Shown: positions 3,181 to 59,480 of the stretch, piece by piece
Layout: each line of letters begins with the position of its first letter
Numbering within the stretch: the stretch's first letter is position 1
DNA from: a virus
Reading direction: 5' to 3' (one strand)
IMG/VR virus record: IMGVR_UViG_3300005613_004097
Location: 44,515-108,514 of that record
Length of the DNA stretch: 64,000 nt
Made by a program: the position numbers and the translations under genes
Notes under the pieces: generated by a model
What the model was told of the DNA's origin: nothing
The model's database searches: none
What the model saw: the letters and a program-made list of their open reading frames with translations, nothing else

Positions 3181-4623
3181 ATGAAGAAACTTTTAAATTA
3201 TTTCCAATTCATATCTGAGAGAAAATCAGACGATTCAAAGGTCAATTTAGAACAGGATCAGATCGAGGATATATTTCAAATGCTCCAAGATGATGATTAC
3301 GAAGTAAGTTTAGAAGAACATCATATAAGTAAATCAGATGTTGATGAGATAGTCAGGGATGGTGAGTTGGACGCAGATGCTGGTGAAAGAATATTCACTG
3401 ACAGAGATTATTATGATGTATATTCAATAAATATCAGATCAGGCAAATTTGACAATATAGAATCAGACATAACGGATGAATATACCATTGCAATGGATGT
3501 TATCAAGTCGATGGGATTCACTGTACTGGATCCACAAGGTGTGGATAAGGATCCACAATTGGAAATGTTCAAGAATCTGTCAGAAAGATGGTCATACAAA
3601 GATGTGTATCTGATAGATGGAAAGATTCACCTTTTCAAAGCAGTTACCGGAAGATCAATACAAGAAGTTTTGGATTCAGAAGTTGAAAAAGGCGAGATGC
3701 TTGATGCAGATGTTCAGGATATCACTATTTATATTTCTGATATGAAACCTCATAGATGGACATCAAAGGAACTTGCAGAAGAATTCAATTGGCATTATGA
3801 TGGTGTTATCGAGGAGATGCAATATAACGGTAAACCCCTAAAAGATGTGATATATTTCGATATTAACCGGGAAGATCTAAGTGATATTGTAATGAGTAGT
3901 AATTCATGGGGTAAAGAATATCTTGAATGGGATGGTTTGGATAAATTATATGACAATCATCTTGATAATGATTATATGCCGGATATCAGGTCAATGTTCT
4001 TGTATTCTCTTGATGATGAGAATGCAAAAATGTTGGTTAAATGTGTCATAATGGAACATGGTGGTCCAAAAGAATTGATAGAAGAATATGATATTGATAC
4101 TGAAGCTGAGACAATGGATGAGCTAATAGAATTCCTTCTTGGTGAGAGATATTATGAGAATTTAGAATCAATAGATTCTGAGATAATAGATGAGATAGGA
4201 AGAATCATAGAGGGTCACGAGAGGAATGCCCATGTAAATGAAATATATCAAGAAATTGAAAATGAATTTGATAAACTTTTGGATTCACAGGGTGTTGAAT
4301 ATATTAAAAAATTCAGAGCAACTGATACACACATATCTTACACAAGAACCTATGATGGTAAATCAAAAAGACAGGAAATAGAATATGAAACATGGATGTA
4401 TCGGATAATATATGAGGATAGGTATTTTGACGATTCACATAGTAGTATGAAAGATATGGAAGGTTGGTCACTCAGTGAGATATTCAATGAATATTACAGT
4501 GATAATTATCTAAGTGGGGATATATCCATTCGTGATGTTTATGGTGGTGATGTCGATAAAAAGGAAATGAACAGTGTGATCAGAGCTGAGTTAATTTCAT
4601 ATATCGAAAGAAATTCAAAGTGA
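3181..4623 (+). CDS. Acidic hypothetical protein, candidate internal virion protein
   Basis: 480-aa ORF; upstream aatatata; N-terminus MKKLLNYFQFISE. Confidence 0.7.
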   Translation: MKKLLNYFQFISERKSDDSKVNLEQDQIEDIFQMLQDDDYEVSLEEHHISKSDVDEIVRDGELDADAGERIFTDRDYYDVYSINIRSGKFDNIESDITDEYTIAMDVIKSMGFTVLDPQGVDKDPQLEMFKNLSERWSYKDVYLIDGKIHLFKAVTGRSIQEVLDSEVEKGEMLDADVQDITIYISDMKPHRWTSKELAEEFNWHYDGVIEEMQYNGKPLKDVIYFDINREDLSDIVMSSNSWGKEYLEWDGLDKLYDNHLDNDYMPDIRSMFLYSLDDENAKMLVKCVIMEHGGPKELIEEYDIDTEAETMDELIEFLLGERYYENLESIDSEIIDEIGRIIEGHERNAHVNEIYQEIENEFDKLLDSQGVEYIKKFRATDTHISYTRTYDGKSKRQEIEYETWMYRIIYEDRYFDDSHSSMKDMEGWSLSEIFNEYYSDNYLSGDISIRDVYGGDVDKKEMNSVIRAELISYIERNSK

Positions 4624-11561: not shown

Positions 11562-11576
11562 TTTAACTTTTTTGTG

Positions 11577-11650
<74 letters not shown>

Positions 11651-54175: not shown

Positions 54176-55780
54176 TTAACCTTTCCAACCCGCTTTCAAT
54201 GATACCGTTCTGTTAAGTGATATACCATCCTTATCAAGAACATAATATCCTTTTCTCATCATTTGAACCACTACTCCTTCTTTTAGGTTTTTAATTTCTG
54301 GTTCAAATATTGCATCATTATTTATTGTCAATGAATCTTTGTTTACCTCATTTATAAAATCATCACTTGGTGTTTCAACATCGAAAAGTCTATCATACTC
54401 GTTTACTCTCATTTTGATACCATACTTACAAGAAACCCAATGAATTGTTCCTTTTATCTTTCTATCAAGTTCTTTACCAGATTCAGACTCAGGATCAAAA
54501 GTACAATGTATTTCAGTTATGTTTCCCAATGAATCTTTTAATACTTCATTTGCTTTTATAACAAATGCTCCTTTCAATCTTACCTCTCCACCTAATTTCA
54601 ATCTGTGATATTTACGATTGGCTTCCTCTCTGAAATCTTCTTTTTCAATAAATATCTCTCTTGTGAAAGGAACCAATCTTTTACCTGATTTCTCATTCTC
54701 TGGATTATTCTCAACCTCACACCATTTAACATCATATTCATTCCAATTTGTAATAACAACCTTTACAGGATCAAAAACACCCATCAATCTATTTGATGTT
54801 TTATTCAATTCTGTTCTTAGAATTTCTTCTAAAAGTGTGTAAGAAACAACTGATTCTCTTTTTGTTACTCCAACTCGATCACAGAATTCTCTAATGCCCG
54901 ATGGTGTGAATCCCCTTCTTCTGAGTCCAGCAATTGTTGGTAACCTTGGATCATCAATACCTTTTACTATACCATTATCAATAAGAGCATTGATCTTTCT
55001 TTTTGACATGATAGTTGAATCAATATTCAAACGAGCAAACTCAGTTTCTTCTGGAAGATTTCCTGACAAATTACAACTTCTAAGAATCCAATTATAAAGT
55101 GGTCTATGTACTTCAAATTCCAATGTGCAAAGTGAATCGGTTACTCCTTCTATATAATCACTCAGAGGATGAGCAAAATCATACATAGGATATATCTTCC
55201 AATTATCACCAGTTCTGTGATGTGGTATTTCAATTATTCTGTAAATAACAGGATCTCTTAATATCATATTTGAATGTGACATATCAATTTTGACTCTCAA
55301 AGTCATTGACCCTTCTTTGAATTCACCTGATCTCATTCTTTCGAAAAGATTCAAATTTTCTTCAATGGTTCTATTTCTGAATGGTGAGTTGATACCAGGT
55401 TTGGTTGGAGTTCCTTTCATTTTAGCAATCTCTTCTGATGTTGAATCATCAACATAAGCCATTCCCTTTTTTATTAAAGTGATTGCACATTCATAAATAA
55501 AATCAAAATAATCCGAAGTGAATTTAATATCACTTGGTTTAAATCCAAGCCATTCAACATCTTTAATGATGGATTCAACATATTCTGTTTTTTCAGTTGT
55601 TGGGTTCGTATCATCAAACCTGAGTGTACAAGGAGCATTGTACTTTTCTGCCAATCCAAAATTCAAACAAATTGATTTTGCATGACCAATATGGAGTCCT
55701 GAGTTTGGTTCAGGTGGAAAACGAAGTTTCAATTTATCTAAGTTTCCTTTTTCTAATATTTTTTCTTCTATAAAATTCAT
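54176..55780 (-). CDS. glnS: Glutaminyl-tRNA synthetase
   Basis: RFPPEPN, HIGH, RFDDTNP, IYPMYDFAH, CTLEF, MSKRK, GTIHWVS. Confidence 0.97.
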   Translation of the reverse strand: MNFIEEKILEKGNLDKLKLRFPPEPNSGLHIGHAKSICLNFGLAEKYNAPCTLRFDDTNPTTEKTEYVESIIKDVEWLGFKPSDIKFTSDYFDFIYECAITLIKKGMAYVDDSTSEEIAKMKGTPTKPGINSPFRNRTIEENLNLFERMRSGEFKEGSMTLRVKIDMSHSNMILRDPVIYRIIEIPHHRTGDNWKIYPMYDFAHPLSDYIEGVTDSLCTLEFEVHRPLYNWILRSCNLSGNLPEETEFARLNIDSTIMSKRKINALIDNGIVKGIDDPRLPTIAGLRRRGFTPSGIREFCDRVGVTKRESVVSYTLLEEILRTELNKTSNRLMGVFDPVKVVITNWNEYDVKWCEVENNPENEKSGKRLVPFTREIFIEKEDFREEANRKYHRLKLGGEVRLKGAFVIKANEVLKDSLGNITEIHCTFDPESESGKELDRKIKGTIHWVSCKYGIKMRVNEYDRLFDVETPSDDFINEVNKDSLTINNDAIFEPEIKNLKEGVVVQMMRKGYYVLDKDGISLNRTVSLKAGWKG

Positions 55781-56462: not shown

Positions 56463-56530
56463 TTGTCCTGGTAGGATTCGAACCTACATAAACTTCTCGT
56501 CTCCTGATTCAAAGTCAGGGACACAGGACA
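56463..56530 (-). tRNA. D-armless tRNA-Gln(UUG)-like RNA
   Basis: Acceptor TGTCCTG/CAGGACA, anticodon arm CCTGA-CTTTGAA-TCAGG, T arm GTAGG-TTCGAAT-CCTAC; only 4 nt where the D arm should be. Confidence 0.75.
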
Positions 56531-56692: not shown

Positions 56693-56694
56693 AT

Positions 56695-56728
56695 AAAAAA
56701 CCCGTTCAATTTGAGATTGAACGGGTTT
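56695..56728 (-). terminator. Attenuator terminator immediately upstream of the tRNA-Gln cluster
   Basis: AAACCCGTTCAAT-CTCAA-ATTGAACGGG-TTTTTT, ending 2 nt before the tRNA 5' end. Confidence 0.9.
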
Positions 56729-56756
56729 GTATCTTTACTTTTTATCAGACAATACT

Positions 56757-56816
56757 CTACCAGTCAATCTCTCGATCGATTTGCTGTTGTTGGTATTGTT
56801 GAGTAAAAGTTGTCAT
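56757..56816 (-). CDS. Gln-rich attenuator leader peptide MTTFTQQYQQQQIDREIDW
   Basis: Six Gln codons in seven positions (CAA CAA TAC CAA CAA CAG CAA); contains GAGATTGA, complementary to the terminator 5' arm/loop. Confidence 0.88.
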   Translation of the reverse strand: MTTFTQQYQQQQIDREIDW

Positions 56817-56820
56817 TTCT

Positions 56821-56885
56821 TTATATATTATATTTTTATTTCTTTGTTTTACAAATGTAAGGATTATTTTTTAATTGACAAAATA
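56821..56885 (-). promoter_or_regulatory. Dual promoter of the Gln leader (Bacteroidota sigma-A type plus phage late-type motif)
   Basis: TTTG...TACATTTG upstream, then TAATATATA 4 nt before the leader ATG. Confidence 0.65.
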
Positions 56886-57207: not shown

Positions 57208-57221
57208 TTTTTTTGTTTTAG

Positions 57222-57308
57222 TGTGAGTGGGTGGAGTCGAACCACCATTTACCTCACAGGAATCGAACCCATACGGATGCCTCCGTTAGTCACCAAGACT
57301 TCACTCAC
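57222..57308 (-). ncRNA. tRNA-like RNA with two T-loop hairpins and no canonical anticodon loop
   Basis: GTGAGTG/CACTCAC acceptor; AGTC-TTGGT-GACT; ACGGA-GGCA-TCCGT; ATGGG-TTCGATT-CCTGT; GGTGG-TTCGACT-CCACC. Confidence 0.65.
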
Positions 57309-57644: not shown

Positions 57645-58478
57645 TTATTTTTCATATAAATCTATGAAATTCTTACCATACTTATTTTTTACATAATTCA
57701 AAAATGGCTTTATAGTGTCCTTGTAATAAACTTTTATGTGAAATGGAAAATGATTAATTTTCGCATCTGTTAAATCTGAACGGAAGTTCTTAATTTCAAC
57801 AAACTCACCATTCACAATAAAATCTGGATAAAATTTGTGCCTCTCATTCTCATAAACATAATTATAACCTTTCTTATTCCTTATTATGTCTATTTTATTT
57901 TCCAAACAATATATTAAGAAAGCCAACTCATAACTACTATCACACCAAAATCCTTTATACCAACCACATTTTCCTCTTGATGATCCTTTTTGTGGTCCAC
58001 CACATACTTTCATCCAACATTCTTTGTGATATTTTCTGTCCTTTTTATACTTCTTTTCAATTATCTCTTCCCCACACAGTTTACAATTGAATTTCAGAAC
58101 TTTTTTTGATCTTCTATTCTCTGGTATTTCTACTCTACCTTCGTCAATTGCTAACTTAATGGATTTTGAGATTTTTTTCTTAGTATCTTCTGTATGTGTT
58201 TTAGAATTTGCACACTTTCTTGAGCAGTAATTTTTTACTTTATTTCTCCTGATTTCTGATTCAGTTGCCGTTACCTCGAACTCAGTTGAACACTTAGGAC
58301 ATTCTTTCTTTAATGTGATTCTTTCAACTTTTTGAACTCCTTTAAACCTCTCAGAAGCTCTTCGTTTCCTTTCTTCTAATTTTGGATTAAATTCACAACT
58401 CGACACATGAGATGCAAAATGTGGTTGTTTCTCAACCTCTATGATTTCATTACACCATTTACATTCCTTTCTATACAT
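57645..58478 (-). CDS. Free-standing endonuclease (zinc ribbons, NUMOD3-like, C-terminal PD-(D/E)xK)
   Basis: Several CxxC; HTEDTKKKISKS; DSSYELAF...FYPDFIVNGEFVEIK. Confidence 0.75.
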   Translation of the reverse strand: MYRKECKWCNEIIEVEKQPHFASHVSSCEFNPKLEERKRRASERFKGVQKVERITLKKECPKCSTEFEVTATESEIRRNKVKNYCSRKCANSKTHTEDTKKKISKSIKLAIDEGRVEIPENRRSKKVLKFNCKLCGEEIIEKKYKKDRKYHKECWMKVCGGPQKGSSRGKCGWYKGFWCDSSYELAFLIYCLENKIDIIRNKKGYNYVYENERHKFYPDFIVNGEFVEIKNFRSDLTDAKINHFPFHIKVYYKDTIKPFLNYVKNKYGKNFIDLYEK

Positions 58479-58545
58479 AATAAAAACTCTATTTTTAGTA
58501 TATATTAAAAAGTTGGCGGCTCGTTTGAGAATTGAACCTATTATG

Positions 58546-58641
58546 TCAGGGAAGGGGGATTCGAACCCCCGGAAGACGCACCCCTTGCGCCTTCACCAGA
58601 TTCCAAGTCTGGCCGCTTCAACCTAACTCGCGCATTCCCTG
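58546..58641 (-). tRNA. tRNA-Pro(UGG) with an abnormally long variable arm
   Basis: CAGGGAA/TTCCCTG-A (C1:G72, A73); CCAGA-CTTGGAA-TCTGG; variable stem GAAGGCGCA-AGGGG-TGCGTCTTC; GGGGG-TTCGAAT-CCCCC. Confidence 0.85.
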
Positions 58642-58649
58642 ATATTTAG

Positions 58650-58726
58650 CGGTCCTAGTCGGATTCGAACCGACCTGTTATTCTCCTGTGACAGAGGAGT
58701 AGCCACACCAAGCAGCCCCTAGGACC
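58650..58726 (-). tRNA. tRNA-Asp(GUC)
   Basis: GGTCCTA/TAGGACC-G; CTCCT-CTGTCAC-AGGAG; GTCGG-TTCGAAT-CCGAC. Confidence 0.95.
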
Positions 58727-58728
58727 AT

Positions 58729-58764
58729 AAAAAAACCCAGTTAATCTTTTGACTAACTGGGTTT
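58729..58764 (-). terminator. Attenuator terminator immediately upstream of tRNA-Asp
   Basis: AAACCCAGTTAGTC-AAAA-GATTAACTGGG-TTTTTTT, ending 2 nt before the tRNA 5' end. Confidence 0.9.
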
Positions 58765-58789
58765 GTTTCATTGGGTTATATTTTCAATA

Positions 58790-58891
58790 TCAACTCATAA
58801 AAACAAAGCAGTTAGTCACTATACGATCCGGATCGAGATCGTTCAAGCCTTTCGGTTGAGGATTAACTGATATGTTTTTAATTGTTTTCAT
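58790..58891 (-). CDS. Asp/Pro attenuator leader peptide MKTIKNISVNPQPKGLNDLDPDRIVTNCFVFMS
   Basis: 3 Pro (CCT, CCG, CCG) and 3 Asp (GAT) codons within 12 codons, followed by TGACTAACTG, the exact complement of the terminator 5' arm. Confidence 0.8.
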   Translation of the reverse strand: MKTIKNISVNPQPKGLNDLDPDRIVTNCFVFMS

Positions 58892-58897
58892 TATTAC

Positions 58898-58977
58898 TAT
58901 ATATTAAAATATTTTTCTTCCTTTTTTATTTTAGACTACAAAGATACAAAAGTTTTTTAATTGCCAAAATTTATTTT
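58898..58977 (-). promoter_or_regulatory. Dual promoter cassette of the Asp/Pro leader (repeat copy 1)
   Basis: TTTG...TATCTTTG plus TAATATATA; near-identical to 59400-59480. Confidence 0.75.
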
Positions 58978-59378: not shown

Positions 59379-59399
59379 CTTTCTTTAATTATTTTTTAG

Positions 59400-59480
59400 T
59401 ATATATTAAAATATTTTTCTTCCTTTTTTATTTTAGACTACAAAGATACAAAAGTTTTTTTAATTGCCAAAATTTATTTT
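59400..59480 (-). repeat. Direct repeat copy 2 of the 80-bp promoter cassette
   Basis: Same as 58898-58977 except one extra T in a homopolymer. Confidence 0.9.

Follow-up and report, generated by a model that had tools for sequence, protein, structure and literature searches.

The question raised by this locus is what a short reading frame and an intrinsic terminator are doing between a promoter and two phage tRNA genes. The window, by which is meant the whole stretch of DNA analysed (64,000 nt) from a giant uncultured phage, carries all of these elements on its minus strand, and every sequence feature given in the initial annotation was confirmed at its coordinates. Very probably they form a ribosome-mediated leader-peptide transcription attenuator that gates the phage tRNA-Asp and tRNA-Pro genes; the regulation itself is inferred, since no expression data are available. 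The elements are the following, in the order in which they would be transcribed:

58939-58968, minus strand: promoter of the Bacteroidota sigma-A type, with TTTG (-33) at 58968-58965 and TAnnTTTG (-7) at 58946-58939
58898-58906, minus strand: TAATATATA motif, 6 nt ahead of the leader ATG; the motif also precedes real phage genes
58790-58891, minus strand: leader ORF of 33 codons with a TGA stop, containing NPQPKGLNDLDPDR
58861-58869, minus strand: region 1, the putative anti-antiterminator arm, predicted to pair with region 2 if not covered by a ribosome
58826-58861, minus strand: regulatory codons 11-22 (Pro CCT, Pro CCG, Asp GAT, Asp GAT, Pro CCG, Asp GAT)
58801-58818, minus strand: region 2, the putative antiterminator 5' arm, made of a 10-nt core (58818-58809) and an extension (58807-58801)
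58729-58768, minus strand: regions 3 and 4, the intrinsic terminator, with an A-rich 5' extension (58768-58762) and a terminator-scan match at 58764-58733
58649-58726, minus strand: tRNA-Asp(GUC), 78 nt with an 8-nt variable loop, called by ARAGORN
58545-58642, minus strand: tRNA-Pro(UGG), 96-98 nt with a 23-nt extra arm, called by ARAGORN and matched by the Rfam tRNA family (51.8 bits)

The genes behind the terminator had been named tRNA-Asp(GUC) and tRNA-Pro(UGG) in the initial annotation, and ARAGORN returned both identities, with support from Rfam for tRNA-Pro. The tRNA-Asp at 58649-58726 was not reported by Rfam, even at E values up to 1. It carries G73, C38, G10 and a G2-C71 pair, with two bases between the D and anticodon stems, and comparison with the related tRNA-Asp of LR756500.1 reveals compensatory changes in the stems, which support its being a real gene. 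The tRNA-Pro presents the identity set of bacterial ProRS (C1-G72, A73, G35 and G36). Both tRNAs are nevertheless structurally unusual and their function is unproven. The odd type of tRNA-Asp (window 58649-58726, minus strand; L041 4003-4080) occurs also in the huge phage LR756500.1, and the 23-nt hairpin in the variable region of tRNA-Pro is unusual in a class I tRNA. In relatives many of the array tRNAs measure 80-98 nt (Lys, Glu, Asn, Ile, Thr, Met, Asp and Pro), and these long versions adjoin normal-sized copies with the same anticodon. The tRNA-Asp of LR756500.1 stands without an attenuator, hence the design is not universal among huge phages.

Transcription of the unit would start from the promoter at 58939-58968, which lies 48 nt upstream of the leader ATG. 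A scan of the window with the published Bacteroidota promoter consensus (PMC7366714, PMC9723704) gave nine matches against 2.9 expected, a number that was reached in none of 100 shuffles. Among these matches are the leader site (58939-58968), the site of a Gln leader (56852-56882) and a further one at 59441-59471. Moreover, the same pair of motifs was found upstream of every homologue of the Asp/Pro unit. There is no space for a second promoter behind the terminator, since the gap between the T-run and tRNA-Asp is only 2 nt. The promoter cassette (58877-58977) is repeated with 92% identity at 59384-59480 (minus strand), before a 114-aa ORF (59378-59034). The TAATATATA motif occurs at 28 sites of the 108.5-kb record, where 11 are expected, and at 17 of the 28 an ATG follows 4-8 nt downstream, including those of ORFs of 314-756 aa. 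A further example lies at 56822-56830 of the window. The motif may be a phage promoter for near-leaderless mRNAs or a translation start signal.

The leader ORF had been described as holding three Pro and three Asp codons within 12, with two CCG codons in an AT-rich genome, and both statements hold. The Pro codons are numbers 11, 13 and 21 (CCT, CCG and CCG) and the Asp codons numbers 18, 20 and 22 (all GAT); the phage is 67% A+T and uses CCG for 12% of its Pro codons. Taken over the whole leader, 6 of 32 residues are Pro or Asp against 3.3 expected (z 1.5), which is modest alone. The significance of the leader thus rests on the clustering of these codons, their conservation and the existence of parallel families, and not on enrichment over the whole leader. 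The Asp and Pro codons themselves form a GATC-rich 7-bp hairpin (58823-58842, minus strand), in place of which relatives have a different palindrome. This can be a pause hairpin, or merely a by-product of GAT-CCN-GAT codons.

Downstream of these codons the transcript can adopt mutually exclusive pairings. The terminator consists of an 11-bp stem (58761-58751 with 58746-58736), an AAAA loop (58750-58747) and a run of seven T (58735-58729). The core of region 2 (58818-58809) matches 58759-58750 in the 5' arm of the terminator as a perfect complement, and the pairing of regions 2 and 3 continues between 58807-58801 and 58768-58762. The 10-mer of this core has two sites where 0.06 are expected and none elsewhere in the 64 kb on either strand. 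The initial annotation had pointed to this extended complement, to a long hairpin enclosing the leader stop codon and to a U-tract ending 2 nt before the first tRNA. All three were recovered: the T-run covers 58735-58729 and tRNA-Asp begins at 58726, and a transcript cut before region 4 (the terminator 3' arm) is predicted to fold as a long 2:3 hairpin with the stop codon inside it.

The minimum free energy fold of the whole leader combines the 1:2 hairpin with the terminator (-48 kcal/mol, z -5.6), and the three hairpins are of similar calculated strength (-15.9 kcal/mol for 1:2, -20.8 for 2:3 and -15.5 for 3:4). When ribosome masks were included, the full transcript folded as the terminator and the truncated one as 2:3, whatever the position of the ribosome. 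Equilibrium folding with such masks was rejected as a model of the switch, and the decision must be kinetic, as is understood for classical attenuators, since the full transcript always ends in the terminator fold. On sequence alone, what is expected of a ribosome-mediated attenuator is met: a leader, regulatory codons, a terminator, antiterminator and anti-antiterminator arms, and a suitable geometry.

In the proposed mechanism, that the leader is translated is an inference, and so are the kinetics and the response, both in its direction and in its size. Transcription would start at the host-type promoter and a ribosome would then translate the 33-codon leader. If Pro and Asp codons were decoded fast the ribosome would reach the stop codon, which lies 15 nt past the region 2 core, directly behind the extension and inside the loop of the would-be 2:3 hairpin. 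With the ribosome having finished there, region 2 would be masked or paired again with region 1, the 3:4 terminator would form, and the RNA polymerase would halt 2 nt before tRNA-Asp. Slow decoding at any of the six Pro or Asp codons would make the ribosome stall over region 1 and the regulatory codons. This would leave region 2, which starts 7 nt after the last Asp codon, free to pair with region 3, so that the terminator would be blocked and both tRNA genes transcribed. There is a caveat in the geometry, as the first 2-3 nt of region 2 would lie under a ribosome that had stalled at the last Asp codon. The phage thus probably makes tRNA-Asp and tRNA-Pro only when ribosomes read Pro or Asp codons slowly, with regulation again being an inference. 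As the switch would yield the same molecule whose lack it senses, this would be a direct negative feedback on tRNA supply. A search of public RNA data gave only two metatranscriptome runs (shares 0.08 and 0.05), with pieces over leader regions in the form of assembled contigs which give no ends, strand or level. Leader-peptide attenuation has been reported as likely in Flavobacteria (PMC9723704).

If the reading frame matters it should be visible in relatives of the unit. The nearest public relative of this phage, the uncultured phage LR745206.1 (634 kb), has an orthologue of about 69% identity in which the promoter, the frame, the Pro and Asp codons and the terminator are all kept. Its leader has 31 codons, with four Pro and two Asp, and is followed by tRNA-Pro, four tRNA-Asp and tRNA-Pro. 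Pattern scans of viral and metagenome contigs yielded 33 distinct homologous units and, beyond these, five further units with diverged terminators; the set was partly ascertained through the terminator sequence. The relatives differ by about 30-40% of nucleotides, yet frame and Pro/Asp codons are conserved. All 141 gap runs inside the ORF of the 33 units are multiples of three, whereas gaps between stop and terminator have arbitrary lengths. Entropy by codon position is 0.47, 0.52 and 0.75, the third being the most variable. The 29 distinct coding sequences all have Pro at one column, with CCG, CCT, CCC and CCA in use, and Asp at two, always as GAT; two more Pro columns are kept in 21 and 26 of them. 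Part of the leader peptide outside the Pro/Asp codons is also conserved. Within region 2 the third codon positions are frozen. The spacing is likewise kept throughout the 33 units: region 2 begins 7 nt behind the last Pro/Asp codon, the stop follows region 2 after 7-16 nt, and 23-35 nt separate the stop from the terminator. This pattern is that of a leader, translated by inference, whose 3' part doubles as an RNA arm. The outcome which according to the initial annotation would have refuted the attenuator, homologues keeping the hairpins and losing the frame or the codons, was not observed.

The covariation of antiterminator and terminator, which had also been suggested as a check, gave a divided answer. 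In 27 homologues the pairing of the region 2 core amounts to 93% and that of the terminator to 99.3%, and the 2:3 and 3:4 helices are too constant for covariation to be seen within the Asp/Pro family. Pair counts within the family are therefore uninformative, given that the helices are almost invariant and that the set was partly ascertained through the terminator pattern; it is the comparison between families that supplies covariation evidence. When cellular genomes were scanned for the terminator, three matches came up, of which two in Acinetobacter have no tRNA gene nearby. The third lies in Spirosoma endophyticum (L148, 978-1001), a member of the Bacteroidota, where the hairpin ends a host tRNA-Ser/tRNA-Pro(UGG) operon and matches the consensus terminator of the phage Asp/Pro cassettes without a difference over 24 nt. 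This may be due to chance (about one match is expected) or be a trace of the origin of the module.

The Asp/Pro unit is not alone. A tRNA search of three related genomes, with inspection of every array, led to seven cassettes of the same layout. Their specificities are His/Lys/Phe/Trp; Ser/Arg; Tyr/Glu; Ile/Gly/Ala; Asn/Leu/Met/Thr/Val/Ile; Pro/Asp(/Gln); and Gln. Each of the seven leaders spells the amino acids of its own array, and some cassettes stand in tandem. The system is modular, with one cassette per tRNA array. A looser terminator pattern gave further families in other phages, for instance a Thr/Tyr/Gln/Pro/Lys/Gly leader before Pro, Lys, Gly, Gln, Tyr arrays. The leader families number at least 11 overall, seven in this phage lineage and the others in other phages, cultured Cellulophaga phage phi4:1 being one of these. 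The solitary tRNA-Arg(UCU) of the window (11576-11650) is without such a cassette. In phi4:1 three codon-matched cassettes were found, at 3376-3500, 4300-4480 and 6082-6236 of L143; on the numbering of NC_021788.1 their T-runs lie at about 87165-87190, 88140-88165 and 89895-89920. One of its leaders, with QRLHLQELEQP, precedes Pro, Glu, Gln, His, Leu, Leu and Arg tRNA genes. Another of its leaders is probably the protein annotated as hypothetical gp075, the start codon of which may be other than ATG.

Permutation gives a measure of these matches. In each of two genomes none of the other assignments of leaders to arrays, out of 5040, does as well as the true one, and with the 11 families none of 200,000 permutations matched leaders to arrays as well as the real order. 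A similar result was obtained for the RNA arms: each family has a segment 15-25 nt before the stop that is complementary to its own terminator rather than to those of others. Permutations as good as the real pairing of region 2 with its own terminator numbered 22 and 5 of 5040 for the seven cassettes (two genomes) and 11 of 200,000 for the 11 families. The Asp/Pro leader of the window ranks its own array first and its region 2 ranks its own terminator first of 11; in other cassettes compensatory differences between genomes were seen. The locus had originally been regarded as an independent second instance of the design, which made coincidence unlikely. It proved to be one of at least seven cassettes in the lineage and at least 11 overall, and permutations exclude chance. 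The parts, their conservation, the coding constraint on the leader, the match of codons to arrays and the exclusive pairings are observations.

It was further claimed that the unit is a two-input sensor, in which shortage of either tRNA turns on both. What this predicts for the sequence is fulfilled in the window, with regulation inferred. In most relatives, however, the sensor would have three inputs (Pro, Asp and Gln), as the Asp/Pro leader reads NPQPQ...DQDPD, with Gln codons. Where the leader of relatives has three consecutive Gln codons the array opens with tRNA-Gln; otherwise the Gln cassette follows the Asp/Pro unit without a promoter of its own. In the window only one Gln codon is left in the Asp/Pro leader, a zinc-finger ORF and other DNA lie between the Asp/Pro and Gln cassettes, and the Gln leader has its own promoter. 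This suggests that leader inputs track the transcription unit, on the evidence of one lineage only.

The target of the module can also be other than tRNA. In two metagenome contigs an Asp/Pro terminator and a region 2 with an Asn-Asp-Asp leader precede a gene for a class II (D/K/N) aminoacyl-tRNA synthetase, which means that the module has been reused for a synthetase:

L123, 1-545, minus strand: synthetase-gating module
L141, 1300-1884, plus strand: synthetase-gating module

What the leaders report on can now be considered. It is proposed tentatively, and with somewhat less than even confidence, that the cassettes constitute a modular, isoacceptor-specific supply controller, in which leaders sense decoding speed and switch on the matching phage tRNAs or, elsewhere, synthetases. 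The same switch could instead answer to host amino-acid starvation (uncharged tRNA) or to a general slowdown of translation, used as a cue or timer and not for tRNA homeostasis. This is rather unlikely, but a stalled ribosome cannot distinguish a missing tRNA from an uncharged one. In addition, charging capacity falls within the regulated set, since an aminoacyl-tRNA synthetase gene is also among the targets of the module and the Gln array is followed by a gene of the GlnRS type. Starvation as the signal would make the feedback futile, because extra tRNA gives no relief from a lack of amino acids, and it does not account for leaders that list exactly the specificities of their arrays. Nor does it account for the way in which codons track anticodons: the Ser/Arg leaders use CGC, which makes up 1% of the Arg codons of the phage, before tRNA-Arg(ACG), the Asn-type leaders use AGA before tRNA-Arg(UCU), and a CGT codon has been gained by one Asp/Pro variant whose array includes tRNA-Arg(ACG). 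As far as can be read from the sequences, the choice of leader codons follows anticodons and not only amino acids. Whether the cue is tRNA abundance or charging is not decidable from sequence, and the anticodon-specific codon choice favours tRNA.

A second alternative denies decoding any role, by supposing a constitutive, partly leaky terminator or processing signal next to an independent micropeptide gene, of which only the product would matter. The ORF is indeed under coding constraint, has a gene-like start context and encodes a peptide that is partly conserved outside its Pro/Asp codons. It would remain unexplained why 11 unrelated leaders spell their own arrays (0 of 200,000 permutations), why each ORF contains, at a fixed distance from its stop, a complement of its own terminator, and why third positions are frozen in the conserved C-terminal codons, which RNA pairing would lead one to expect. 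This explanation is therefore very unlikely. Still less credit can be given to a switch made of RNA only, binding tRNA in the manner of a T-box or else a protein, with the ORF being incidental. Three alternative hairpins and the strong sequence conservation of terminator and antiterminator would suit such an element; on the other hand the indels respect the frame and the Pro codons change synonymously, the leader is only about 130 nt long with no conserved specifier-like loop, neither a T-box nor any other cis-regulatory Rfam family matched even at E values up to 1, and the regulatory residues differ between families exactly as the array codons do. Chance, that is an AT-rich spacer with an ORF that happens to hold some Pro/Asp codons beside an ordinary terminator, can practically be dismissed, for the z of 1.5 of the 6 cognate residues in 32 is its only support and it is excluded by the 33 distinct conserved units, the 10-mer unique in the window and the cross-family permutations.

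The leader-peptide attenuator, which remains the preferred reading, belongs to a known class of mechanism. The attenuators trpL and hisL of enterobacterial amino-acid operons are classical examples, and multivalent ones exist, with Thr and Ile codons in the thr leader and Ile, Leu and Val codons in that of ilvGMEDA. The phage unit shares with these leaders a short translated frame (by inference here) with clustered regulatory codons, an intrinsic terminator, regions 1-4 with mutually exclusive 1:2, 2:3 and 3:4 pairings and a stop codon placed so that a finished ribosome would disfavour the antiterminator; as in thr and ilvGMEDA, one leader would sense several amino acids. Unlike them it would control tRNA genes and not enzymes, so that the output is the sensed molecule. 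Moreover it is phage-borne, has a promoter of the Bacteroidota type, bears no sequence or Rfam relationship to the enterobacterial leaders and comes in modular cassettes, one per tRNA array and sometimes in tandem. The leader of the E. coli pheST operon (pheM) is a leader-peptide attenuator before aminoacyl-tRNA synthetase genes. There too a component of translation supply is controlled by the decoding of cognate codons, and the relatives L123 and L141 have a target of the pheM kind in their class II D/K/N synthetase gene. The unit of the window differs in having tRNA genes as target, in host phylum and sequence, and in its multi-codon input.

T-boxes need no translation: they recognise uncharged tRNA by direct binding, with a specifier codon and the T-box sequence as contacts, and control genes for tRNA charging and amino-acid supply. 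They resemble the phage leader in that a choice between terminator and antiterminator reports on a specific tRNA, and differ from it in that the reading frame of the phage leader is under selection and has no Rfam T-box match. No control of tRNA genes by T-boxes is known. A leader attenuator of tRNA-Phe genes in E. coli, considered as a precedent, had to be discarded, as the region upstream of pheV in K-12 has only a promoter and neither leader ORF nor terminator. Full-text literature searches gave no account of leader-peptide control of tRNA genes, and in Rfam 15 no cis-regulatory family reached threshold, with only chance-level matches overlapping the hairpin at E values up to 1. Within the limits of these literature and Rfam searches, the mechanism class is known, and no prior description of tRNA genes as target, or of the feedback logic, was found.

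The reason why phages carry tRNA genes, and the use made of them, are debated; the tRNAs have been proposed, among other things, to match codon usage, to make up for the shutoff of the host or to allow escape from defences that cleave tRNA. If leaders do sense the decoding speed of codons read by the tRNAs downstream, large phages would regulate their tRNA supply by demand and channel by channel, and classical attenuation would be extended to a new class of targets in which the sensed molecule is the product. If the controller proposed above is real, a giant phage could replace host tRNAs on demand, for example once host tRNA synthesis has stopped or host anticodon nucleases are cutting specific tRNAs. 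One channel of such a controller would be the Asp/Pro unit, with a sensitivity tuned by its preference for CCG and CCT over CCA; the Pro codons of the leader are rich in CCG and poor in CCA when compared with the genes of the phage. The hypothesis is directly testable, since Cellulophaga baltica and phi4:1 or phi17:2 make a cultured pair that carries three cassettes. In Bacteroidota, the leaders might also be put to use as natural reporters of how fast particular codons are translated.

Regarding the source of the DNA, CheckV rated the 108.5-kb viral record that contains the window as 18% complete, from which a genome of roughly 600 kb can be deduced. The promoter type and the cultured phages with the same design point to a Bacteroidota host. 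Metagenome matches come mostly from lake and sea samples, and a Lak megaphage label for the lineage was withdrawn given this mainly lacustrine and marine distribution.

The region downstream of the Asp/Pro array presents some further features. No Pfam family scored above threshold for a Cys-rich ORF of 277 aa (57645-58478, minus strand) that separates the Asp/Pro array from the Gln cassette as an insertion. This ORF is found there also in one relative (L010, from about 1127 onward) and is absent from the corresponding place in LR745206.1. A tRNA-like element at 57221-57308 (minus strand) has a 7-bp acceptor stem and two T-arm-like hairpins and follows immediately on its own promoter-like motif; the sole ARAGORN call for it, an intron-containing tRNA-Ser(CGA), seems forced. 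The Gln cassette (56694-56882, minus strand) is real and conserved, with six Gln codons in 19 in its leader, a terminator and tRNA-Gln genes; the leader stop is TAG in the window and TGA in relatives. Behind the two called tRNA-Gln genes lies a third, tRNA-Gln(UUG)-like gene without a D arm (56463-56530, minus strand), which scores 39.9 bits with Rfam and has no ARAGORN call. Downstream of the Gln array a gene at 54176-55780 (minus strand) encodes a glutaminyl/glutamyl-tRNA synthetase of 534 aa with three class I E/Q domains (best E 6e-96).
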